Shown here: one piece after another, positions 1 to 11,411 of the stretch
Numbering within the stretch: position 1 is the first letter of the stretch
How the letters are laid out: every line of letters starts with the position of its first letter
Source of the DNA: Candidatus Thorarchaeota archaeon
Lineage (GTDB): Archaea; Asgardarchaeota; Thorarchaeia; Thorarchaeales; Thorarchaeaceae
Assembly (NCBI GenBank): GCA_016839605.1
Contig: JAEOTX010000035.1
Span: 1-11,411 of the forward strand
Length of the DNA: 11,411 nt
Direction: 5' to 3'
The notes under the pieces: generated by a model
Databases searched by the model: none
Seen by the model: the letters and a program-made list of their open reading frames with translations, nothing else
What the model was told of the DNA's origin: nothing
Translations under genes and position numbers: made by a program

Positions 1-294
1 GTATGATCCTTTCATCACCCTGAGATTCCATGTAGTGACAATATAGACAGTGTATCTCTTCTTGTATTCTCCAATTGTCCACAAGAACAATCCGAAGAAA
101 ATTGCTCCCATGCCAATCCACCAATCCAGCTCATCGTAAGGAACTACACGTGCTGCAACGGCTATGTTGAAGAGCATTCCAATAAAAAGAAAAACTGTGC
201 CTAGGATGTATAGATATAGAAAGCCAGTTCGTGCTGGATGGAAAGTCGCCAGAAGCTTCTCGTGGTCTTCAGGCGCTGTCTGATGCTCTGTCAT
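1..294 (-). CDS. Membrane protein with two TM helices followed by the start of a bacterial PH (bPH_2/YdbS-like) domain; 5' part only, runs off the left edge
   Basis: My translation from ATG at 294 is open for 98 codons to position 1: MTEHQTAPEDHEKLLATFHPARTGFLYLYILGTVFLFIGMLFNIAVAARVVPYDELDWWIGMGAIFFGLFLWTIGEYKKRYTVYIVTTWNLRVMKGSY. Two hydrophobic segments are followed by YTVYIVTTWNLRVMKG, resembling the first strands of bPH_2. An SD-like GGAGAGTGA lies 5 nt upstream of the ATG. Confidence 0.75.
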   Translation of the reverse strand, partial: MTEHQTAPEDHEKLLATFHPARTGFLYLYILGTVFLFIGMLFNIAVAARVVPYDELDWWIGMGAIFFGLFLWTIGEYKKRYTVYIVTTWNLRVMKGSY

Positions 295-343
295 GGGGGT
301 CACTCTCCGTGACCACACTGCACTCTTATCAAGTTGTCGTGAA

Positions 344-994
344 CTATCCGCCAGGAATCAGCGCACCTTTTTCTGGAACAACGCATTTTCCATCTGGAAA
401 CTTCTTCTGAAACAGATTACAGAATGACTTCGGTTTCCTAAAGAGCCAATGCATAGGAATTATTGTTGGGAGTGGGTGACTAAACTTACCAAGCTGTTCA
501 ACAGCAGATTTTGGAGAGGTGGCAACTATGCCGCTTATGGGAAGCGCGAGGAGGTCGAGCTCCTTGTCATGAAATCCATCTAATGTGATTGAATCTCCGA
601 TGTGCCCAAAGGAAAAGCCCTCTGACCTAACAATGACTCCATACACGATAATCCCCCTAAAGAAACCATGCTGCCCTTCCACGAACTCAAGAGTGAAATC
701 ATCAAAGCTTAGCTGTTCACCGAGCTTCGCTTCAACCGCCCTTTCTCGCCATTTGTGTAGCGCTTCAACTACTTGTCCATTGCCAACTAAAACGGCTTCA
801 GGATTTCTTTCAAGAAAGGGACCTACTCCTCTCGTATGATCAAAGTGTTTGTGTGTGCAATAGACCACATCGCCATCTATGTTTCCAGATTCCTTATCAG
901 CTGGATCAATAAGGAGCCTTTTTGTTCCAAGCTGAATGTGGAATCCTGACTGCCCAAGGAATCTGATTTCCGGCCAAACTGATATTCTAGACAC
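344..994 (-). CDS. Metallo-beta-lactamase-fold metal-dependent hydrolase (UPF0173/UlaG-like)
   Basis: FLGQSGF start, LLIDP, THKHFDH (HxHxDH), GQHG, GHIGDS and IPMHW motifs in canonical order. GTG start. Confidence 0.9.
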   Translation of the reverse strand: MSRISVWPEIRFLGQSGFHIQLGTKRLLIDPADKESGNIDGDVVYCTHKHFDHTRGVGPFLERNPEAVLVGNGQVVEALHKWRERAVEAKLGEQLSFDDFTLEFVEGQHGFFRGIIVYGVIVRSEGFSFGHIGDSITLDGFHDKELDLLALPISGIVATSPKSAVEQLGKFSHPLPTIIPMHWLFRKPKSFCNLFQKKFPDGKCVVPEKGALIPGG

Positions 995-1032
995 CCCGCA
1001 CCAAGAGTACTAGACTTCTAAATGCGCTCAAC

Positions 1033-1040
1033 TTTATATT
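1033..1040. promoter_or_regulatory. Putative archaeal TATA box in the divergent intergenic region (TTTATATT / AATATAAA)
   Basis: The clearest AT-rich element between the divergent genes at 994(-) and 1112(+). It reads as TATA-like on both strands, ~40 nt from the MBL start and ~72 nt from the NfeD-like start. Confidence 0.45.
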
Positions 1041-1111
1041 CGTTCGGGAGAATCATACCCCGAGTTTGAGACTATGAAGCCTTCAGACTCGCCCGGGGTG
1101 TACAAACGAGC

Positions 1112-2083
1112 ATGCAGGATATCGTGGTAATTGCAGCCTTGATTAGAGAGATATCATTTGGAATACTACTCATTGGTCTATTCTACACATTTGGAATGTT
1201 CATGATTGGTAGGCTTGTTTCAGCCATCGGCGAGCATGGTACAGACCATGATGTTGAGAAGGAAATTGACCACGATGTCGAACATGATATTGATCACGAT
1301 TACGATATGGAACATGGTGAGATAGAACATGATGTAGATCATGATTATGATATGGATCACATCGACATTGATCATAGTATTGAACACGAGTATGAAGCAG
1401 ACCACGACATAGATGCAGGGTACGACCACGAGATAGGACATGAAGTGGAAAAGGATATTGATCATGGAGTAGACTATGATGTGGACCATGAAGTTGAACA
1501 CGACATTGAGCATGACATTGAGCATGATGTTGAGCATGATATCGAGAAGGATTGGGACCACGAAGTTGACATAGATCATGAACTCGACATGGAGAAGCCT
1601 TCCGGATTCTTCGAGAGTGATAGAGGTGCCCCTCTGGGTGTGACCATTGGGACCTCACTGTTGAGCTTTGGATTCTTTGGATCCATCATATATTACGATG
1701 GCATAGTAATTCCTCTCGAAGGCAAGTTTCTTCTTCATTTTCTGGGAGCTGTTCTTGTAGTATATGCAGTCAGAACCGTTCTCGGGAAGGTGTTTGTTGA
1801 GTCCGGATTCATGATTGAGCCACGTCACCTCGTTGGTAGACACGTTGAGGCAGTTTCAACCGTCAGCGATGAATTTGGCGAAGTTCGAACGGATACTGAT
1901 ATGGGCTTGAGACGCTTTCACGCACGCCCATTCCAAAAGGGGGTCGTCTTCGAGAAAGGCACTGACCTCTATGTGGTATCAGCTAATGAGAAGTTCGTCT
2001 ATGTTGACCCGCGAAAAGAAGCCCTAAAGTGGAGTCATAGGCAAAGTCAGAAACGCCGTGACAGCCAAAAAGAAGCAACCTAG
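1112..2083 (+). CDS. NfeD/YqiJ(YuaF)-like membrane protein with long His/Asp/Glu-rich repeat loop and C-terminal OB-fold-like domain
   Basis: N-terminal hydrophobic helix, low-complexity DH/EH region, two more TM segments (PLGVTIGTSLLSFGFFGSIIYY; FLLHFLGAVLVVYAV), then LVGRHVEAVSTVSDEFGEVR...FEKGTDLYVVSANEKFVYV matching the NfeD C-terminal pattern. It lies directly upstream of an SPFH gene, the established NfeD-SPFH pairing. Confidence 0.8.
   Translation: MQDIVVIAALIREISFGILLIGLFYTFGMFMIGRLVSAIGEHGTDHDVEKEIDHDVEHDIDHDYDMEHGEIEHDVDHDYDMDHIDIDHSIEHEYEADHDIDAGYDHEIGHEVEKDIDHGVDYDVDHEVEHDIEHDIEHDVEHDIEKDWDHEVDIDHELDMEKPSGFFESDRGAPLGVTIGTSLLSFGFFGSIIYYDGIVIPLEGKFLLHFLGAVLVVYAVRTVLGKVFVESGFMIEPRHLVGRHVEAVSTVSDEFGEVRTDTDMGLRRFHARPFQKGVVFEKGTDLYVVSANEKFVYVDPRKEALKWSHRQSQKRRDSQKEAT
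1232..1597 (+). repeat. Degenerate coding tandem repeat, ~12-bp unit encoding [D/E]-H-[D/E]-[I/V/Y]
   Basis: Residues 41-162 contain 22 His and 55 Asp/Glu in 122 aa (hand count). Best-preserved DNA units are at 1496-1543: gaacacgacatt gagcatgacatt gagcatgatgtt gagcatgatatc. Confidence 0.9.
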
Positions 2084-2103
2084 ACATCATTTCTCTGCGC
2101 AGG

Positions 2104-2110
2104 TTTATAT
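2104..2110 (+). promoter_or_regulatory. Putative TATA box (TTTATAT) upstream of the flotillin-like gene
   Basis: Same heptamer as at 1033-1039, 20 nt after the NfeD-like stop, in a 226-bp intergenic gap. Confidence 0.4.
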
Positions 2111-2309
2111 CCTCAGAAAACAAAGGTTACTCAGGTGCGTCTGACCTCAGTGTACTACCATCTGAGCAACGATTTGGCAGGAGATTCGACGGCTAGGACA
2201 GATCAGGGACCGAGTCATCGACTGGGAGACTGACAATGCATATTCAGTGGACAAGAGGCGAACTGAGGCAACTGCACTGAAAACACAATTGTGTGAGTAG
2301 AAAGGAAAA

Positions 2310-3620
2310 ATGCAAGCAGGAATACTTGATTGGTTAGCAGCAAACCCAGCTCTCGCCATCGCGCTGTTTGGCATTCTGGGTATACTTTTGCTATCCTTCT
2401 ATATCGTGAAGTATGTCAGGATTTTTGATCCAAACATCTTCTACGTGCATCTAAGGAAGGGTAAGGCAATAAAGCAAGGGGAAGGCGGCATGGTCATTCG
2501 AATTCCATTTTTGGATAGAATACTGGCTGTGGACAGAACAGTCCAGCAGCTGAACATCTCAGCTGAGTCTGTGCTATCCAAAGAGAAGCAGAAGATTCGG
2601 TTGAGTGCAGTCCTTCAATGGCAGGCGGAAAACGCCATAGCGACTATCAACAACGTGAAGTGGTCAGAGATACCGCCAAGACTCACTGCTATTATTGAGT
2701 CAGTCATTCGTACATCGTGCGCTCAATTGGAAGTCGAGAGCATTCTTGAGGAAAGGCAACTAATCATTGAGGCCATCAAAAAGGAACTAACGGACATAGT
2801 TAGCGAGTGGGGACTCAAAATAGTCACTGTAGAGCTAGTAGATGTCGTAGTGGTCAACGATACTTTCCTGAGAGACATGTCCAAGCCTAGAGAGGCTGAA
2901 ATGCATAGATTAGCTCAGATTGCTATAATCCAAGCCGACCAAGAAACTGGTGTCAAAGACATCGAAAGAACTAGGATGCTAAGGGAAAAGGAGATTGCCC
3001 GTGATCAGCAGATTGGTGTACAGGAGCAGGCTCAGCTACGTGCTATCCAGGAGTCTGAGAAGCAACGTGAGCAGAGTGTACTTGAGATCGCGCTGCAGAA
3101 AGACCTGATGCAGAAACGCTATGAGAAGCAGCAGGCTGAGGTCGATGCTGAGAGAGACCTAGAGGTTGCAAAGTTCTCAGCTGAAGCTGAGAAGCAGAGG
3201 AAAATAAAGCAAGAAGTCGAGGTACAAGCCCAGAGGATTCTGCAGGAAGCTAAAGCTGATGCGGAGAAGATAAGCATGGTAGCCGCGGCTGACGCTGATA
3301 AGATTCTCAAGGTCACTAGTGCTGAAGCTGAAGGTATCAAGAAGACTCTGGCAGCTGCGAAGGACTACACTCCTCAAGCATTCGCAAGAGACTTCCTTGA
3401 GATTCTGCCAAGGATCTATGAGCAAATCGATATCGGAGATATAACCCTCTTCGGAGGTGGAAACGGTTCAGACACTGGTGAGGAAGGTGGAGCCGGGGCT
3501 TTCCAAGTCTTTGGTAACGTACTACTTCCTATGATGCTAATGGCCAGAATGATGGGCTTTGACTTTCAGGGATTGATGAAAGACTCACTCGGAAGCATGG
3601 CTATAGAGAAGGCCGCTTAG
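2310..3620 (+). CDS. Flotillin-like SPFH (Band 7) domain protein with coiled-coil region
   Basis: N-terminal TM helix; SPFH core (GGMVIRIPFLDRI, VLSKEKQKIRLSAVLQWQ, IIESVIRTSCAQL, LTDIVSEWGLKIVTVELVDV); long A/E/K/Q-rich coiled coil with AEAE/ADAE/ADAD motifs; flotillin-like tail (LPRIYEQIDIGDITLFGGG). AAGGA lies upstream of the ATG. Confidence 0.9.
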   Translation: MQAGILDWLAANPALAIALFGILGILLLSFYIVKYVRIFDPNIFYVHLRKGKAIKQGEGGMVIRIPFLDRILAVDRTVQQLNISAESVLSKEKQKIRLSAVLQWQAENAIATINNVKWSEIPPRLTAIIESVIRTSCAQLEVESILEERQLIIEAIKKELTDIVSEWGLKIVTVELVDVVVVNDTFLRDMSKPREAEMHRLAQIAIIQADQETGVKDIERTRMLREKEIARDQQIGVQEQAQLRAIQESEKQREQSVLEIALQKDLMQKRYEKQQAEVDAERDLEVAKFSAEAEKQRKIKQEVEVQAQRILQEAKADAEKISMVAAADADKILKVTSAEAEGIKKTLAAAKDYTPQAFARDFLEILPRIYEQIDIGDITLFGGGNGSDTGEEGGAGAFQVFGNVLLPMMLMARMMGFDFQGLMKDSLGSMAIEKAA

Positions 3621-3642
3621 AGAAAGAAGGCAGTAGGTATCC

Positions 3643-3687
3643 GCCTGGGGATTGAGACATATCTCTCTCCAGGCTATTTCTTTTCTT
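3643..3687 (+). terminator. Stem-loop plus T-rich tract between convergent genes
   Basis: GCCTGGGGA(3643-3651)-TT-GAGA-cata-TCTC-TCTCCAGGC(3666-3674) gives 13 pairs including one G-U, followed by TATTTCTTTTCTT. Confidence 0.65.
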
Positions 3688-3703
3688 GAATACACCTCAT
3701 TCA

Positions 3704-5509
3704 CTACATGCCTTTGTAGCAAGGCTTACCAAGCATTCTGAGAAGTTCTTTTCTCAGACTCAGCTCTTGAATAAAGCCATTCAACTGAACATCACACAGT
3801 CTTATTGTTGGTAGCAGAGGTAATTCATCCTCTGGCAACTCGGCATTGGGATCATCAACATTAATTAATTCTACAACTGACTTAGCAATGCTGAGCTCTT
3901 CCATTACCCGCATCAATAAATCATAAACGGGATCACACCAGAAGCAGTGGGCTGATTTGTAAAACGATATGCATTTCTTGCCCCCGCATGGTAGGTCCGT
4001 TTCATCAGTCCAAGTTGGGAAGACACAGACGAATTTTGCTCCCTTAGTGGAGTCGCCCTCGATGTGGTCTTCTACCCAAATCTGGCCGTTGAGATTGCGA
4101 ACGATGTTATCCGCCAGCGTAAGCCCTAGACCTCTTCCCACTACCTGAGCGTCGGGATGCCCACTTCTCTTGAAAATGAATTCCTTAAGCGGGTCCAAGA
4201 TGCCTGGACCATGGTCAGCGAACTCGATGCGCACTAATCTTGAGTCGATAATCTCTGCATTGATGTCAATCTCTACGATATTTCTCTCATCATACATCGC
4301 AGAATTATGGATAATATTGAACAGGACCTGAGACAGATACTGATGACCTGGGATGAAGAACTCTCCTTCAGCAATGTTAGTATTGACTTTGAGTTCCTTC
4401 CAATGAAAATCGATTCTTACAGATTCGACTGCTGCAACCAGGTGATTGTAGATATCGGTCTTTTCAAGCGGCGGAGGTTGGTCTCTAAGTGTGATGATTG
4501 TCCTCATGTTAGCAATCATTCTAGCGGAGCGTCTCACATTCCACGTTGCTGTCTCCAATTGTGACTGAAGTTCTTCTGGAATTTCCAGCTGCGATTCGAG
4601 AAGACCCATTGCGAAGAGAATCGACTGGTTTATGTTATTGAGGTCGTGAGTCGCGATTTCAAGGTAGAGATTGGCACGTTCCTCTTCCATTCGTTCCCGG
4701 CTCTCAGCAGTCTTCCGTCGGTCAATATCCATAGCCATGAGCCCGATTCGACTGGCCCTTCCCCCCGGCTTGTCTAGAGGGCCTGCTGTGACACTGACCC
4801 AAATAGACTTGCTATCAGCTCTTCTCATTAAGATCTCCACGGCAGTTACTGTTCCACCTTGCAGTATCTCGTCGAAGACAAGCTTCCCGGCCTTACTATC
4901 AATCGGGTCGCCTGGCAGAAATGATTCAATATTCCTTCGTATCATTTGCTCTTCTCTGTATCCTAAAAGCCGCATAGCTGCCTGATTCACTTGGAGTACA
5001 ATGCCTCTGGGGCTCAAGGTGAAATACGCTATCGGCGAAGACTCGAACAATTGCCTATATCGTGATTCCGACTGCTCAATAGCAGCTTCCAATTTGAGTT
5101 GCTGCGTGATGTTTCGAACTATTCCAACCTTGGCTGGGGCACCCTGATACACAAAGTCTGCTAGGCTGATCTCAACCATCACCATGCGACCTGCTTTCGT
5201 GACAAGTCGGATCCGGAGGCTTGGCTTGGATTCAGAAGAGATGTCAGAGCTTTCCGTCTGTTCCTTGTACAAATGAGCCGTAGCTGGGTCCAGAAGACTT
5301 GCAAAGTCTCTCCCAAGGAGTTCGCTCTCCTCAAGTTCAAGTAGCTTGGAAAATGCTGGGTTGACCATTGCAATGCTGTCGTCCTGAATCACCACAACGC
5401 CATCATTTGCCATTTGGAGGATGCTCTTGTACCTATCATTTGTATCAGTATCCTCTTGGGGCTTTTCCTTCGGCAAACAATACACACCCGGCATACAGTC
5501 GATCTGCAC
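3704..5509 (-). CDS. Soluble PAS-PAS sensor histidine kinase with C-terminal thioredoxin/glutaredoxin-like CxxC domain
   Basis: Two PAS/PAC domains (RYKSILQMANDGVVVI...VNPAF...RNITQ; RYRQLFESSPIAYF...VNQAA...MDIDRRK), H-box THDLNN, N-box NIIHNS, G1 DHGPGI, F-box IF, G2 GRGLGL, then a ~95-aa tail with CFWC. No TM segments. The real start may be ATG 5494 or TTG 5476 rather than GTG 5509. Confidence 0.9.
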   Translation of the reverse strand: MQIDCMPGVYCLPKEKPQEDTDTNDRYKSILQMANDGVVVIQDDSIAMVNPAFSKLLELEESELLGRDFASLLDPATAHLYKEQTESSDISSESKPSLRIRLVTKAGRMVMVEISLADFVYQGAPAKVGIVRNITQQLKLEAAIEQSESRYRQLFESSPIAYFTLSPRGIVLQVNQAAMRLLGYREEQMIRRNIESFLPGDPIDSKAGKLVFDEILQGGTVTAVEILMRRADSKSIWVSVTAGPLDKPGGRASRIGLMAMDIDRRKTAESRERMEEERANLYLEIATHDLNNINQSILFAMGLLESQLEIPEELQSQLETATWNVRRSARMIANMRTIITLRDQPPPLEKTDIYNHLVAAVESVRIDFHWKELKVNTNIAEGEFFIPGHQYLSQVLFNIIHNSAMYDERNIVEIDINAEIIDSRLVRIEFADHGPGILDPLKEFIFKRSGHPDAQVVGRGLGLTLADNIVRNLNGQIWVEDHIEGDSTKGAKFVCVFPTWTDETDLPCGGKKCISFYKSAHCFWCDPVYDLLMRVMEELSIAKSVVELINVDDPNAELPEDELPLLPTIRLCDVQLNGFIQELSLRKELLRMLGKPCYKGM

Positions 5510-5518
5510 ATTCCTGAG

Positions 5519-5532
5519 CTTAAGGGGTTTTC
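5519..5532 (-). promoter_or_regulatory. Possible BRE/TATA-like element for the histidine kinase (GAAAACCCCTTAAG on - strand)
   Basis: Purine run followed by TTAAG ~25 nt upstream of ATG 5494, a spacing compatible with a leaderless transcript. Weak match. Confidence 0.3.
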
Positions 5533-5611
5533 ACAACGACCTATGCTTCTTTGAAACGCTCATAATGTTTGCTTGTCTGGTGTCATTCTTATCGGCAAGT
5601 ACCGCCGCATA

Positions 5612-5646
5612 GAAAACATTTTAATAGTTATTCAAATGTTGGAATA
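5612..5646 (+). promoter_or_regulatory. BRE + TATA box (GAAAA-ca-TTTTAATA) overlapped by a 12-2-12 inverted repeat, the putative ArsR/SmtB operator
   Basis: AACATTTTAATA-GT-TATTCAAATGTT at 5615-5640 has 11/12 complementary positions. The TATA element at 5619-5626 lies ~25 nt before ATG 5652. Confidence 0.75.
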
Positions 5647-5648
5647 TT

Positions 5649-5972
5649 GTGATGACGCGAACTTCGAAACAAATTGAAGCTGATCTAGACCAATTAGACG
5701 CTCAAAACATTGCTCGATTATTCAGTGCTCTAAATGATGAGTCAAGAGTCAGAATAGTTCACCTTCTTATGCGGGAGAAGAGAATCTTTGTTTCTGAAAT
5801 AGCGGAGAGAACTGGGCAGCACATCAGCAGTGTGAGTCACCATCTACGAATTCTAAAAGACCTTGGCTTTGTGAAACATGAGCGTCAAGGCAAGAAGGTG
5901 TATCACATGTTGGATGATGACTGCATCAGAGACATCATGGAGAGGGCAAAGGAACATGTTGCTGGAAAGTGA
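5649..5972 (+). CDS. ArsR/SmtB-family metalloregulatory repressor
   Basis: FSALNDESRVRIVHLL, winged HTH (VSEIAERTGQHISSVSHHLRILKDLGFV), wing RQGKKVYH. Directly upstream of a P1B ATPase. Likely start is ATG 5652 (leaderless). Confidence 0.93.
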   Translation: MMTRTSKQIEADLDQLDAQNIARLFSALNDESRVRIVHLLMREKRIFVSEIAERTGQHISSVSHHLRILKDLGFVKHERQGKKVYHMLDDDCIRDIMERAKEHVAGK

Positions 5973-7866
5973 AGGGGAGGCTGTCTGTACTCATTGCGCA
6001 AAGCATGAGGAAGAAGACACCAAGACAAGCATGAATGAGAAGTATGCCTTGGCAGGTCTCTCTTCCGTTACTTGGGTAGTTGCCATTCTAGTGGAACTAC
6101 TTTGGCAGAACCAGCTCATTGTCTATAGCCTGTCAATTGCTGCAATTCTAGTAGCAGGGAGATGGATCATTCCAAGAGGGCTACGCGGTGCCGCTAAAAT
6201 CCATCTAGACATCAATTTCCTAATGACATTTGCAGCCTTTGCAGCCCTCATTATTGGTGCACCTCTGGAAGGAGCTGCCGCCATGTACCTCTTCTTCATC
6301 GCCAATCTCCTTGAAGACAGAGCAAGTGCGCAGGTACGAAATGACATCCAAGGCTTGCTGGAGCTAGCCCCACAGATGATCACCTTGAAGACTTCTTCAG
6401 GGCTAGTTGAGGTTCCGGTTGAATCAGGGCAGATGGGCGAGGTCTTTGTAGTCAAGCCGGGTGATAGAATTGGGCTTGATGGAATAGTCGTGTCTGGAAC
6501 CACCAGTGTGAATCAGAGCCCAATAACGGGAGAGTCAGTTCCGGTTTCCAAGCAAGTTGGGGACACGGTGTATGCTGGAACAATCAACATGGATGGCTCG
6601 GTTGAGATTGAGGTCACTCACTTATCAAGTGAGACTGTGCTCTCTCGCATAGTGTCACTTGTAGATGAAGCACGAAGCAAGAGGTCGCCCACTGAAAAGC
6701 TTGTATCTAGGATTTCTCACAGGTACACTCCAATGGTTGTGCTAGCGTCAGCAGCAATGGTAGTAGTAACATTCGCCTTTGGGTTCACTTTGCAGGATGC
6801 AGTCTATCGAGGACTTACACTGCTAGTCACCTCATGTCCATGCGCTTTTGTGATTTCTATTCCAGTGAGTATGGTCAGTTCAATCGCGGGTTCGGCACGT
6901 AGCGGTGTCCTTGTAAAGGGATCTGAATATATTGAAGCTCTGAGTAAGTCATCAGTTGTTGCATTCGATAAAACTGGAACTCTGACTGAGGGAGTGCTCC
7001 AGGTAGAAAACATTACACAGGCAAATGGGGCGACCAGAGAGGAAGTGCTTCACATTGCAGGTTCTTTGGAGCAATATTCTGAGCATCCCATTTCCAGAGC
7101 AGTCACACAATTGGCAGAGATAGAAAGAGTGACTCTTGGCACCGTCGACTCATTTCAAGCCATAGCAGGGAGAGGAGTCACAGGTGAGATTGGTGGAGAC
7201 AAAGTTGTGGCTGGCAATAGGGGTCTGATGCAGGAAAAGGGAATCGATATTCCTGACAACGACACTCAGAAGGCTGGAACTAATGTATACGTTGCCAAGA
7301 ATGGAAATCATGTTGGGACAATAAGGCTGATGGATTCAGTTAGACACACCGCAAGACGAGCTATTCAGGATTTATCCGCGATGGGCATTAGATCAGTCAT
7401 GCTGACTGGAGATAATGAAGCCACAGCCGTTCATGTTGCGAAGATACTTCAAGTAGATGAATACCATGCGGATCTTCTTCCTCACGAAAAGGTGGAGGCC
7501 GTGGAATCCATAACTGATGAAGGAACACATCTCTTTGTCGGAGACGGAATAAACGACGCGCCAGCTATGGCAGCATCAGATGTTTCTGTTGCGATGGGTG
7601 TAATTGGGAGCGACTTGGCCTTGGAAACCGCTGATGTGGCTCTTATGGAAGACGACCTTGAGAAGATTCCCATTCTTATCCAGCAAGCACAGAAGACCAT
7701 GTCTATTGTCAAACAGAACATTGCAGTGTCAATTGGCATCAAGGCAGCTGTAGCAATCTTGGCAATAGCTGGACTGGCGACTCTCTGGTTAGCTGTTGGA
7801 GTAGGTGATATGGGAGTTTCGTTACTCGTTATTGCGAATGCTTTGAGACTAGCAATGCGACGATAG
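5956..7866 (+). CDS. cadA: Heavy-metal-translocating P1B-2-type ATPase (Zn/Cd/Pb; ZntA/CadA-like)
   Basis: ITGES, SCPCAF, FDKTGTLT, SEHP, LTGD, VGDGINDAP; N and K in the penultimate TM (QNIAVSIGIK) and DMG in the last TM are P1B-2 signatures. Start reassigned from 5878 to in-frame ATG 5956, which overlaps the arsR end by 17 nt. Confidence 0.9.
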   Translation: MLLESEGEAVCTHCAKHEEEDTKTSMNEKYALAGLSSVTWVVAILVELLWQNQLIVYSLSIAAILVAGRWIIPRGLRGAAKIHLDINFLMTFAAFAALIIGAPLEGAAAMYLFFIANLLEDRASAQVRNDIQGLLELAPQMITLKTSSGLVEVPVESGQMGEVFVVKPGDRIGLDGIVVSGTTSVNQSPITGESVPVSKQVGDTVYAGTINMDGSVEIEVTHLSSETVLSRIVSLVDEARSKRSPTEKLVSRISHRYTPMVVLASAAMVVVTFAFGFTLQDAVYRGLTLLVTSCPCAFVISIPVSMVSSIAGSARSGVLVKGSEYIEALSKSSVVAFDKTGTLTEGVLQVENITQANGATREEVLHIAGSLEQYSEHPISRAVTQLAEIERVTLGTVDSFQAIAGRGVTGEIGGDKVVAGNRGLMQEKGIDIPDNDTQKAGTNVYVAKNGNHVGTIRLMDSVRHTARRAIQDLSAMGIRSVMLTGDNEATAVHVAKILQVDEYHADLLPHEKVEAVESITDEGTHLFVGDGINDAPAMAASDVSVAMGVIGSDLALETADVALMEDDLEKIPILIQQAQKTMSIVKQNIAVSIGIKAAVAILAIAGLATLWLAVGVGDMGVSLLVIANALRLAMRR

Positions 7867-7867
7867 G

Positions 7868-9457
7868 CTAGCGAAACGAGTTCATTGCATGTACACCAGC
7901 TTCAAGAAACAGGAAGACGATTGCCAATACATAGAATGGGAGGGCGACAAGTATCAATAGCTCATGCGCCAAAGCTGCAACTAAGGCAATCAATACCGCA
8001 CCCAAAGTGAGATTGACAACTGGAAATGAGAAAGCCAAGGGAACAGGAAGTATCCTTGGATCATTAGTAAAGACTGGGACAAATGCACCTATAGCTATTC
8101 CTGATGCTGTGAATATTAGGACCAGTGGAGCTGCAAGAGTGAGTAATGCACCAAAACCCTGAACTCGAAAGAAATAGGCGATGAATCCAAGAATTGGGAT
8201 TGAAGAAAGCCCAACCTCCATGAGGCTTAGCATATATTTTGCTAGTATGATATCTATTGGTTTGAAAGGACTTGCTTTCAAGAGGTAGATATTATCTTGT
8301 TCATCTACAAAGCTTAAGAGACTCGTGACACTGCTGAGCTGAATCATGAGAAGCACTATGAGTAAGAATGCTGGAATCGCAGTTGAGCTAAGTTCTGGAG
8401 GAATTTGCATTGGAGCAAGGTTGGCAGGTCTTACTAAGTTGAGGTATACGACAAAGATAGTACCAAAGACAACATACACATATTTCCAGATCTGAAGAGG
8501 GCTTCTCATTCTAGACCAGAAGTCCTTAAGCATTATCCAAGACATCGGGTCGGAGAATCTGGTTTCTGTGAAGTCTACCTGCCCTCTGACTATCTTACTA
8601 AATCGCCCTTCAACTTTCTCTCTCCCTGCAGCAGTTGCAAAGACTTCGTAATAGTCAAAATCACACAAAGCGGATAGAAAAAGGAATGATATCAGAAAAC
8701 CAAGAGCGAGGAATTGCAATCCCACAAGTGGACCATATCCCCATGATAATATTCCTGTGACTTCAGTGACTATGTACGCGAAAGCATTTGATGGAACTAG
8801 CATTGATTCCACGGAGCTGCTGGTTACTGATGGAATTGTAGGAAGGAGTGCCAAAACCACTAGAAGAACCACTAGTAGATGTCTAATGGGATTGTTGGTC
8901 CTCTGTTGCAGCTTGACCTTGAAGTAAGATGCAATCCCACCTAGGAAGTAATTCACTTCGAAGAATATGATGGTAGTGATTAGGAGTGTAAATAGGGGCA
9001 TGAATAGAATGTTTGCAGAGCTCACAATAGGGAAGATTGCAACAAGGCCTGCGAAGATGAAGACAATCTTGCGGACAAGTCTGCGAACGTATCTACTCAT
9101 GAATAGCTGATAAGGTTTGATGGGTGCACCAAGAATAATGGACTCATCATTTTCAGTCAATACCGCAGCAGGACCCAGACCGAAATAACCTCCAACAATA
9201 GAGGACAGTGTCAACACTCCCATCGCAGTGAATACCGTTCCACGATCAAGCACATCTTCCACAAGCACACCTAGCAGGAATACTACTGGACCAAAACTCA
9301 GGACCGTCGATATAATTACACTAACGAAATACACGCCAATGATGGTTATTCCGTAGAACATCAGCATCGATGGTGTTCTAATCGTGCGTTTGAACTGGTT
9401 CCAAAGCATCCGGACCTCGTTTCTAGCAAGGGTAACGGTAGTGACAACCAAGTTCAA
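7868..9457 (-). CDS. ABC exporter permease, multi-TM, two-repeat ABC-2-like
   Basis: About 12 hydrophobic segments in two similar halves (IILGAPIKPYQLFMSRY / YLLKASPFKPIDIILAKY); immediately downstream of an ABC ATPase. SD AGGTGA suggests TTG 9451 may be the true start. Confidence 0.82.
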   Translation of the reverse strand: MNLVVTTVTLARNEVRMLWNQFKRTIRTPSMLMFYGITIIGVYFVSVIISTVLSFGPVVFLLGVLVEDVLDRGTVFTAMGVLTLSSIVGGYFGLGPAAVLTENDESIILGAPIKPYQLFMSRYVRRLVRKIVFIFAGLVAIFPIVSSANILFMPLFTLLITTIIFFEVNYFLGGIASYFKVKLQQRTNNPIRHLLVVLLVVLALLPTIPSVTSSSVESMLVPSNAFAYIVTEVTGILSWGYGPLVGLQFLALGFLISFLFLSALCDFDYYEVFATAAGREKVEGRFSKIVRGQVDFTETRFSDPMSWIMLKDFWSRMRSPLQIWKYVYVVFGTIFVVYLNLVRPANLAPMQIPPELSSTAIPAFLLIVLLMIQLSSVTSLLSFVDEQDNIYLLKASPFKPIDIILAKYMLSLMEVGLSSIPILGFIAYFFRVQGFGALLTLAAPLVLIFTASGIAIGAFVPVFTNDPRILPVPLAFSFPVVNLTLGAVLIALVAALAHELLILVALPFYVLAIVFLFLEAGVHAMNSFR

Positions 9458-9470
9458 TCACCTGCATGAA

Positions 9471-10415
9471 CTATTCAGGAATGCCTCCAGTCAGTTCGAG
9501 AAAGACTTCCTCCAGATTTGTAGCACGAGTGCTCTCATTGAGTAGTTCTTTCAGGGTTCCTCTGCCTACAACCTTTGCATCATTCATTATGACAAATCTA
9601 TCACACAATCTCTCCGCCACCTCAAGAATATGCGTGGAAACAAGTATGGCTGAACCTTCTTTCTTTAAATCATGAAGATGCGCTTTGAGGCTCCAAGCCC
9701 CGCGTGGGTCTAATCCGTAGATTGGCTCATCGAAGGCCAGCACAAAGGGCGGCTCTCTGACAAATATGCCAACCAACAGTGTTCTCTGAAGATTTCCCTT
9801 TGAGAGCGTACCAATGTAGTCATCCAAATGCACTCGAAGCTGGAACATGTCTAGATAGTGACTCATCCGAACCAAGGTTTCTTCATTTGGGACATCATAG
9901 ATTCGACCCATAAACATGAGATACTCTCTCACAGTTAGACTAGGATAACAGGTCGGCTTTTCAGGGATATAGCCGATCAAATCCTTTGCTTGAATTGGTG
10001 ACTTCTGTATATCATGGCCACCTACGCTGACCTCTCCTCCGTTTGGCTTGATTATTCCTGTCATGACTCGCAATGTAGTCGTCTTGCCTGCACCATTGGG
10101 TCCCACAAGTCCTACGATTTCGCCAGGAGAAACTTTTAGGTCTAGTTTGTCTACCGCCAATGTCTTGCCAAATCGCTTAGACATTCCCTTGATATCAACA
10201 GCTGGGTTTGGCAATTTCTTTGGTTTGTCAGCTCTCTTCTCCTTACGCTCTTCCATCGTGTTAGATAATTCTTCAACAAGCCAACTTCGTTTTACTGTGC
10301 GACTGGCGATTGGTACTTTGAGAACGCGAGCTAATCTTACAAGCTCATCATCAGTCATCTTTTGAATCGCAGATAGTTCCACACTCAGTCGAGGCGCCTC
10401 CAGCCACTGTGTCAA
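9471..10415 (-). CDS. ABC transporter ATP-binding protein (EcsA/CcmA-like) with ~70-aa N-terminal extension
   Basis: Walker A GPNGAGKTT, GYIPE loop, signature LSKGN, Walker B/D-loop LAFDEPIYGLD, H-switch STHIL, C-terminal LEEVFLELT. Start uncertain (TTG 10415, or later GTG/ATG 10358). Confidence 0.92.
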   Translation of the reverse strand: MTQWLEAPRLSVELSAIQKMTDDELVRLARVLKVPIASRTVKRSWLVEELSNTMEERKEKRADKPKKLPNPAVDIKGMSKRFGKTLAVDKLDLKVSPGEIVGLVGPNGAGKTTTLRVMTGIIKPNGGEVSVGGHDIQKSPIQAKDLIGYIPEKPTCYPSLTVREYLMFMGRIYDVPNEETLVRMSHYLDMFQLRVHLDDYIGTLSKGNLQRTLLVGIFVREPPFVLAFDEPIYGLDPRGAWSLKAHLHDLKKEGSAILVSTHILEVAERLCDRFVIMNDAKVVGRGTLKELLNESTRATNLEEVFLELTGGIPE

Positions 10416-10493
10416 TAAGCATCTAATAATGAAGACGTGGACTCATAACATAAGAAGTCATGGGTAAGAGTATTCTGCAATCCGTCTTATCAA

Positions 10494-11195
10494 TCAGAAA
10501 TCTTGCACGTAGGGAATGACTCGTTGGTACTTAAGAGACCAATCTTTTACTTCTGTTACTATAGGATAGATCTCTACCCCACTTTTGTGAGCATTTTCAA
10601 GCTCCCTTGCGAATTCCGGATCAGTGTCCGCTTTGGGAGAGAATATTGTAGCATCAGGTCTTTGGATGACGAAGACGACCGCCGCTCTCCTAGCACGCCC
10701 TTCTTGCAGCGATCTAGCGAGATTTCTAAGGTGTCTAGCTCCCCTTTCTGTTGGTGCATCGGGGAAAAGCGCATGACCATCTTCAACTAGCGTGCATGAC
10801 TTGACTTCAATGAATGTAGTACCCTTGGACCCATCCAACCTGAAGTCGAATCTCCCATCGTAGATCCTTGGCTCAGGAGTGACCGCATCATATGGTAGAA
10901 ACCAGTCAAGCTCTCGATTCAGGAGTCTTTCCTTCATGAAGCGATTTGGCAAATTGGAATCGATTGAAATCAGAACATTGTCATGCCATAGCCCTATCAT
11001 GTCATAATTGGTCTTTCGATGAAGTCCTGCCCTTTGTCTTAGAAACACTTGTCTTCCGGGAATCATCAGTTCATACATTCTGCCAGGATTTGGAATGAAT
11101 ACCTCAACAACCTTCCCTTCAACCTCAACCCTTCCGAGAAATCTATTTGGTCTGTCGATGAAAATTGCCTCAGTTACTTCGCCTTCTGCTACCAT
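10494..11195 (-). CDS. sfsA: SfsA-family protein (OB-fold plus PD-(D/E)xK nuclease domain)
   Basis: RPNRF, PNPGRM, RFDF, FIEVKSCTL, FPDAPTERGARHL and FVIQR are characteristic SfsA motifs. Confidence 0.95.
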   Translation of the reverse strand: MVAEGEVTEAIFIDRPNRFLGRVEVEGKVVEVFIPNPGRMYELMIPGRQVFLRQRAGLHRKTNYDMIGLWHDNVLISIDSNLPNRFMKERLLNRELDWFLPYDAVTPEPRIYDGRFDFRLDGSKGTTFIEVKSCTLVEDGHALFPDAPTERGARHLRNLARSLQEGRARRAAVVFVIQRPDATIFSPKADTDPEFARELENAHKSGVEIYPIVTEVKDWSLKYQRVIPYVQDF

Positions 11196-11253
11196 TGTAG
11201 AACAAATGTGAAGAATTGAGGGCGTAAATTGCTCTTCCGGTATGGTATCAAGC

Positions 11254-11411
11254 TCAGAAGAATTCTGTAAGGGTAGCCTGAGTTCCCCTTTCAGTGAGTC
11301 CTGAAACCTTCACACCTATGAGCCGCACGTATTTGTGGGGGTCTCTTTTCCTATCAAAGATCTCAACAGCCAGCTGTTGAAGCATCTCTTGGTCGTCAGT
11401 CTCTACCGGGA
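11254..11411 (-). CDS. dinB: DNA polymerase IV (DinB/Dpo4, Y-family), C-terminal fragment with PIP box
   Basis: My translation (11409->11254) is PVETDDQEMLQQLAVEIFDRKRDPHKYVRLIGVKVSGLTERGTQATLTEFF*. VRLIGVKVSGL matches the last strand of the little-finger domain and QATLTEFF matches QxxLxxFF. Missing from the ORF track because it is truncated. Confidence 0.85.
   Translation of the reverse strand, partial: PVETDDQEMLQQLAVEIFDRKRDPHKYVRLIGVKVSGLTERGTQATLTEFF

Follow-up and report, generated by a model that had tools for sequence, protein, structure and literature searches.

Structural modelling confirms that, in a Thorarchaeota (Asgard) archaeon, a soluble sensor histidine kinase ends in a six-cysteine thioredoxin-fold domain. 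The gene lies on the reverse strand of a stretch of 11,411 nucleotides (Candidatus Thorarchaeota archaeon, assembly GCA_016839605.1, contig JAEOTX010000035.1, positions 1 to 11,411), referred to below as the window, and its product is named "PAS domain S-box protein" in public records. The frame runs on for 103 amino acids past HATPase_c, with no linker, to a TAG stop at 3704-3706. This extension, the tail, holds C508, C513, C522, C525, C572 and C597, together with the motifs INVDD, LPT and NGF. The original prediction, made from the letters and their translation, had quoted these motifs, the six cysteines and CFWC at 3946-3935, and all are present as it gave them. The probable start of the kinase is ATG 5494, giving a protein of 596 amino acids, since close homologues begin at a Met aligned with residue 6. 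No open reading frame of 60 amino acids or more is found on the opposite strand of the kinase stretch.

The tail sequence alone has no significant Pfam or NCBIfam match. Its best match among PDB sequences is to the E. coli thioredoxin variant 1txx, at E 0.4; CFWC is paired with the thioredoxin CxxC, LPT with the cis-Pro motif IPT, and P567 falls on P76 of E. coli thioredoxin. Family members from an HMMER search of 1.8 billion protein representatives (E <= 0.001) gave an alignment of 52 domains, and with this family alignment AlphaFold 2 (AF2) modelled the tail with a predicted local distance difference test score (pLDDT) of 87.9, a predicted TM score (pTM) of 0.79 and the topology b-a-b-b-b-a. 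With nine near-identical homologues the pLDDT was 72. Model elements in protein numbering are b1 514-518, a1 525-538, b2 546-550, b3 568-571, b4 574-577 and a2 582-593; in tail numbering, b1 16-20, a1 27-40, b2 48-52, b3 70-73, b4 76-79 and a2 84-95. Foldseek against the PDB returned thioredoxins, glutaredoxins or thioredoxin fusions as the top 50 matches (probability ~1.0, TM 0.5-0.64). VIA-align, which is independent of Foldseek, returned thioredoxins at Z 9.7-8.0, the N-terminal domain of SasA at Z 8.3 and KaiB at Z 8.1. The thioredoxin-type layout proposed in the original prediction is thus borne out by the model and by both structure searches.

The CxxC motif stands at the N-terminus of helix 1 (CFWC at residues 522-525, modelled helix from 525), as in the thioredoxin superfamily. 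Sequence similarity to the superfamily is detected by profile, not by the single sequence. The 52-sequence tail-family profile matches MtH895 (1nho) at E 2e-6, MJ0307 (1fo5) at E 2.3e-6 and the Pyrococcus protein disulfide oxidoreductase at E 3e-5; hhalign aligns the family at 99.6% probability with Asgard domains that lie above the Pfam Thioredoxin/Thioredoxin_3 cut-offs. Because of these profile and hhalign matches the tail is placed among the small archaeal thioredoxins, and is predicted to be a genuine thioredoxin fold, a diverged member of the MJ0307/MtH895 type. Shared with MJ0307 and MtH895 are the length of ~85-100 amino acids, the glutaredoxin-like b-a-b-b-b-a order, CxxC where helix 1 begins and a Pro preceding strand 3. 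Those proteins are free-standing, read CP[HY]C and have two cysteines only, whereas the tail is joined to a kinase, carries a hydrophobic dipeptide within CxxC, falls below every Pfam/NCBIfam threshold when taken alone, and has four extra co-varying cysteines (the CGxxxC knuckle, the Cys after b3 and the C-terminal C[YF]).

Conservation within the domain peaks at the active-site residues. That CxxC would be conserved in homologues, as the first reading needed, is seen for C525 in 52/52 and for C522 in 51/52 aligned domains; the Gly after b4 is invariant, like C525 and P567, and CxxC and Pro persist down to 22-30% identity. All six cysteines plus the Pro are present in 42 of the 52 domains. Members fused to kinases bear the signature S-x-H-C-[LVFI]-[FW]-C-x-P. 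His at -1 of CxxC occurs in 20/21 fused vs 4/31 standalone members, and Pro at +2 after CxxC in 19/21 fused members. Selenocysteine was considered and rejected: a TGA apparently inside the match in two genomes of the same genus is the stop codon after a paralogue's C-terminal GCFS.

Five sequences keep CxxC alone, C508, C513, C572 and C597 being missing together; in the maximum-likelihood tree these five form one derived clade (100/97), nested within the kinase-fused clade. Since the loss is all-or-none in one clade, the four accessory cysteines likely act as one unit. By sequence alignment with E. coli thioredoxin, C513 falls at L24 and C572 at F81. L24 and F81 are at facing ends of adjacent antiparallel strands whose other ends flank the active site, which would put the accessory unit at the pole of the sheet opposite CxxC. 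Most likely, on the simplest reading, the four accessory cysteines form a structural Cys4 metal site, with Zn or Fe as the putative metal.

Binding of an iron-sulfur cluster, by the four accessory cysteines or by CxxC across a dimer, would make the kinase an O2/NO or iron sensor, like NreB or the glutaredoxin-type [2Fe-2S] proteins. The six to eleven cysteines per ~100 amino acids, the CGC added by several standalone members in the loop before the Pro, the anaerobe-type lineage of the host and the dimeric state of kinases would all suit such a cluster. It is nevertheless quite improbable: Foldseek, VIA-align and profile searches matched the tail to no thioredoxin-like protein known to bind a cluster, and loss of the accessory cysteines in a clade that kept the remainder is more what one would expect of a structural metal site that can be dispensed with. 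The standalone members with the additional CGC or CxC in the loop before the Pro (L003 1468-1815, P0029, P0039, P0045, P0048) have 8-11 cysteines in ~110 amino acids; the extra motif could form a second metal or cluster site near CxxC.

The exhaustive HMMER search gave 54 cluster representatives, ~20 of them C-termini of kinases of 450-593 amino acids and ~30 standalone proteins of 95-130 amino acids. With so many representatives, and with CxxC and Pro kept at such low identity, the pattern lies far outside what chance would give. A word-indexed search for standalone relatives (56-179 amino acids) gave none; they were found by the exhaustive search and by searches of the genome itself, which holds three clear standalone paralogues (~110 amino acids) and two weaker matches. 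Standalone relatives sampled are called "hypothetical protein" where named, and the named organism is Thorarchaeota, on which the family is centred. Functional clues are absent beside the standalone members, whose genes are monocistronic with unrelated neighbours.

Spread was surveyed in 301 genomes of the phylum, 77 of them of the family of the window (G000 included). The domain is present in all 76 other family genomes, usually with 3-8 matches, in some with 1-2. Counted in the 150 best matches, it ends an open frame of 450-640 amino acids in at least 59 of the 77. Full-length fused representatives are all PAS(-PAS)-DHp-HATPase-Trx, DHp being the dimerisation/phospho-acceptor helices and Trx the thioredoxin-fold domain; one partial representative (314 amino acids) is HATPase-Trx. 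Fused tails form one clade (94/92), in which the only standalone rows are P0014 and one long-branch sequence; P0014, which has the last part of a HATPase domain at its start, is probably a fragment of a gene. The standalone P0031 is sister to the fused clade. A junction motif, W-x-[DE]-E, is conserved between kinase and tail, with no linker. Mean identity among close orthologues is 87% for the tail, 88% for PAS-B and 83% for PAS-A. A single fusion appears to have placed the domain at the C-terminus of a soluble PAS histidine kinase, with vertical inheritance since then. Relatives hold two or three Trx-tailed kinase paralogues per genome (G251 contig C1 72212-72517 and 168197-168499; L048), and a CxxC-only paralogue occurs within a PAS-kinase cluster, beside a divergent Ras-like GTPase.

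That mis-assembly or loss of a stop codon joined a kinase to a small thioredoxin gene, for which the standalone genes of the same family in the genome could have supplied the second partner, has a vanishingly small probability. The fusion is not an assembly artefact, because the same fused frame recurs in at least 59 genomes, from 16 genera and many independent assemblies; the junction motif is conserved without a linker, and the fused tails are a clade of their own with their own signature. Presence of the fusion in related genomes, on which the original prediction had made itself depend, is accordingly established.

Features of the window that bear on the kinase and its divergent neighbours (positions are those of the whole window).
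Feature	Position	Strand	Remarks
Sensor histidine kinase gene	3704..5509	-	PAS-PAS-DHp-HATPase-Trx; longest open reading frame from GTG 5509, 601 amino acids
PAS domain A, residues ~27-141	5087..5431	-	Pfam PAS_9/PAS, two stretches; TIGR00229 sensory box E 5.9e-34
PAS domain B, residues ~145-270	4700..5077	-	Pfam PAS 150-262, PAS_9 161-255
DHp (dimerisation/phospho-acceptor) helices	4475..4696	-	H-box ATHDLNN; H288 codon 4646-4648; HisKA match weak, E 0.036
HATPase_c, residues 392-498	4016..4336	-	Pfam PF02518 E 3.6e-12; genome search gives the same 4016-4336
Six-Cys thioredoxin-fold domain, residues 506-599	3713..3994	-	AF2 model, structure search and profile matches
N-terminal Cys pair C508-x4-C513 (CGGKKC)	3971..3988	-	just ahead of strand b1; conserved CG(R/K)xxC
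CxxC motif CFWC (C522, C525), preceded by H521	3935..3946	-	C525 invariant; C522 in 51/52
P567 at the cis-Pro position (LPT)	3809..3811	-	invariant in 52 sequences
C572, end of strand b3	3794..3796	-	Cys in 47/52
C597, C-terminal C[YF] motif past the last helix	3719..3721	-	family alignment
12-2-12 inverted repeat (AACATTTTAATA / TATTCAAATGTT)	5615..5640	.	directly upstream of arsR; likely ArsR/SmtB operator
ArsR/SmtB metalloregulator	5649..5972	+	divergent from the kinase; NF033788 E 1.4e-22
Heavy-metal (Zn/Cd-type) P1B ATPase	5878..7866	+	TIGR01525 E 6.8e-163, TIGR01512 E 1.6e-140

Judged from its intact motifs, the kinase is predicted to be catalytically competent. The HATPase motifs are complete (N box NIIHNS, G1 DHGPG, G2 GRGLGL), and the N-box Asn, G1 DxGxG and G2 GRGLGL are conserved across fused kinases. 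The motif alignment has T-H-D of the H-box in 17 of 18 fused kinases; in P0023, of the CxxC-only clade, Tyr replaces the phospho-accepting His (TYG) and the CxxC domain is retained. The genome (3.08 Mb, 80% complete) carries 15 HATPase matches by profile search and five receiver (REC) domains, four in small frames, all on other contigs. The Pfam scan finds no receiver domain in the window, in agreement with the earlier statement that no response regulator lies there; the protein is not a hybrid kinase with REC C-terminal to HATPase. Response regulators are likewise absent from nine orthologous neighbourhoods.

The tail is best read as a thiol-switch regulatory input on the catalytic domain, a reading held with about as much confidence as doubt, in which the redox stimulus and the direction of input are presumed. 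It is one of the functions that the original prediction offered, beside soft-metal gating, a thiol relay and KaiB-like docking; the data fit input and output alike. The switch would be the thioredoxin-type site H-C-x-[FW]-C, which opens helix 1 and faces the conserved Pro loop, in a domain that follows the ATP-binding domain almost without a linker. Oxidation or reduction of CxxC, by direct action of oxidants or via the thioredoxin-reductase system of the cell, would change the reach of the catalytic domain to H288 and so set autophosphorylation. From there the signal would go on to a single-domain receiver protein, one of those whose genes are not linked to the kinase. This input is favoured because no part of the domain is as well conserved as its active-site residues, because the fused clade has tightened rather than relaxed its active site, because the domain abuts the catalytic domain, because a related domain stands in the sensor region of kinases of another Asgard family, because the genome has thioredoxin reductase-like enzymes to set the redox state (two thioredoxin-reductase-like genes and three canonical thioredoxins), and because there are precedents in ArcB, SrrB and RdmS. 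Thiol control is exerted in ArcB and SrrB by cysteines in PAS or catalytic (CA) domains, in SrrB by cysteines within the catalytic domain itself (PMC8534201), and it is also found in RdmS of Methanosarcina, an archaeal kinase (PMC6944256). The oxidation state of cysteines sets activity there, as is proposed here; the difference is that those are isolated cysteines within PAS, GAF or CA domains, whereas here a whole redox-protein fold is appended.

Several points weigh against a thiol-switch input. The link from the domain to kinase activity is itself presumed. Sensor domains are normally N-terminal to the DHp helices, so that a domain at the C-terminus is just as well suited to output or docking. 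A hydrophobic dipeptide within CxxC (FW, LF, VF) is not known from a characterised reductase. A metal could be bound by the conserved His before CxxC, which is no less likely a role for it. Clustering of the four accessory cysteines at the opposite end of the sheet is argued from topology. The divergent pairing of the kinase with a metal-efflux operon in 7/9 loci points to metals, not redox. Complex prediction for the DHp-CA core plus tail scored 0.00 and counts neither for nor against.

Under an output or docking role, which is doubtful, the tail would be either a tethered oxidoreductase whose access to substrate is set by the state of the kinase, or a thioredoxin-fold surface in the manner of SasA/KaiB that recruits a partner instead of, or besides, a receiver. 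It is consistent with the position of the domain, which follows the catalytic domain as REC does in hybrid kinases, with the lack of an adjacent response regulator, with the structural matches to the SasA N-terminal domain and KaiB given above, and with the derived sub-clade without the phospho-accepting His (P0023), whose retention of the CxxC domain means that the domain can matter without phosphotransfer. KaiB and SasA, however, lack CxxC and the thioredoxin active-site geometry, both of which are invariant here; a related domain lies between PAS domains, in the sensor region, in another Asgard family; and no candidate substrate or partner is conserved beside the gene in the neighbourhoods examined. 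SasA of Synechococcus (1t4z) is likewise a histidine kinase with a thioredoxin-fold domain, but that domain is KaiB-like, N-terminal, devoid of CxxC and docks KaiC, in contrast to a C-terminal domain with invariant CxxC and Pro. The resemblance to SasA and KaiB is one of fold only (Z 8.1-8.3). The original prediction had rightly set SasA apart for its N-terminal, KaiB-like domain without CxxC.

Divergent from the kinase are the ArsR/SmtB metalloregulator and the P1B ATPase gene (table). In the ATPase, Pfam gives E1-E2_ATPase and Hydrolase only, with no HMA domain. Divergent pairing of the kinase with a P1B ATPase, with or without a called ArsR, is found in 7 of 9 orthologous or paralogous loci, and persists down to 34-40% tail identity, even where the genes past the ATPase differ. 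It is absent beside two other six-Cys kinases and beside the CxxC-only paralogue. As a matter of gene order, the linkage to the efflux operon hints at a metal connection. The tail might then be a soft-metal sensor, with H521-CxxC, the four accessory cysteines or both as ligands of a thiophilic metal (Zn, Cd or Cu, perhaps As), and the kinase would report metal load alongside the divergent ArsR/P1B-ATPase efflux operon. This is the chief alternative to a thiol switch, if on the whole an unlikely one. The pairing and its persistence speak for it, as do the missing HMA domain of the ATPase, the His-rich NfeD-like protein and flotillin encoded downstream, the conserved His beside CxxC in the fused clade, and Deinococcus radiodurans Trx2 among the top structural matches. 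Thioredoxin-fold metal binders exist, namely Sco1, ArsD and Zn-Trx2.

Against a soft-metal sensor stand three observations. The efflux operon has its own sensor, ArsR, because the conserved likely operator adjoins its arsR: across five orthologous loci no block of the 139-bp intergenic region is better conserved than the inverted repeat, which in the most distant locus (L029) forms a perfect palindrome and which lies ~120-145 nt upstream of the kinase start. The genomes are all of one family and the wider block is syntenic, so that the linkage may simply be inherited. Paralogous kinases (P0016, P0018, P0071) and all standalone members lack an ATPase neighbour and have the same Cys pattern. A shared ArsR operator driving the kinase was considered as well; with the palindrome adjoining arsR and far from the kinase start, co-regulation is not supported.

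Trx2 of D. radiodurans (7d6l) resembles the tail (Z 9.4 over 95 residues) in joining a thioredoxin fold to an extra Cys4 metal site, putative here. The Zn site of Trx2 is a separate N-terminal finger with two CxxC, whereas here the cysteines are spread over the N-terminal knuckle, the end of b3 and the C-terminus. The tail is not of the Zn-thioredoxin 2 (TrxC) type, its N-terminal motif being a single C-x4-C.

Other genes of the window are as follows. At 1112-2083 (+) is a membrane protein gene with an acidic His-rich repeat of ~120 amino acids (HD[VI][ED] units, ~35 His) and an NfeD-like C-terminus; a flotillin/Band 7 gene follows at 2310-3620 (+), and Band 7 recurs near the kinase in some relatives. 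At 7868-9457 (-) a protein of 529 amino acids without a family match is encoded, probably the permease of the adjoining DrrA-type ABC ATPase (9471-10415, -); synteny of this pair with the ATPase/kinase block extends to most relatives. Within 1-7 kb, relatives repeatedly carry DsrE/TusA genes or a TlpA-like redoxin together with CcdA, all of which are outside this window.

The thioredoxin fold and thiol-regulated kinases are already known, and the C-terminal six-Cys thioredoxin fusion is a variant on them. Somewhat speculatively, and rather improbably, it could amount to a new kind of sensor module, acting on the ATP-binding domain from its C-terminal side: a switch made of a Cys4 metal site and CxxC together, which would sense thiol or soft-metal status directly and coordinate with the ArsR/P1B-ATPase operon, the standalone paralogues being a lineage-specific thiol relay that feeds the kinase. 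Beyond the original prediction lie the lineage-specific family of standalone proteins, the co-varying unit of four cysteines, the kinship with MJ0307 and MtH895, and the ArsR with an operator of its own beside the ATPase. No description of a kinase-thioredoxin fusion was found in archaeal or Asgard two-component surveys or in reviews of kinase sensing, subscription-only papers and InterPro architecture tables lying outside the search; the original prediction knew of no characterised PAS-PAS-HK-Trx(CxxC) protein (HK, histidine kinase), and the searchable literature is consistent with this.

Related CxxC thioredoxin domains (family-profile E 4e-16 to 9e-8) occur within other signalling proteins of genome G123, of another Asgard family. 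They comprise a PAS-Trx(CxxC)-PAS-DHp-HATPase kinase (L037 928-2931, +) whose H-box, STKLLEPL, is apparently without His; a Trx-V4R-V4R protein (L044 1363-2961, +); and a Ras/Arf-like small GTPase with a C-terminal CxxC Thioredoxin_3 domain (L041 525-1382, +; Pfam 25.0 bits vs a cut-off of 24.8). Unlike the tail, these domains have two cysteines only, lie above Pfam thresholds and occupy other positions.

Asgard archaea are the closest prokaryotic relatives of eukaryotes. Very few signals of archaeal two-component systems are known and, to our knowledge, none for Asgard archaea. The extra domain of this kinase, conserved family-wide, names a concrete stimulus, thiol redox state or a thiophilic metal, and C522/C525 give a clear mutational handle. 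An unannotated six-Cys thioredoxin-like family is defined, with 3-8 copies in most Thorarchaeota genomes sampled. Related thioredoxin domains are wired into several kinds of Asgard signalling protein (kinases, V4R proteins, Ras-like GTPases), which suggests that signalling in this lineage repeatedly takes thiol chemistry as an input.

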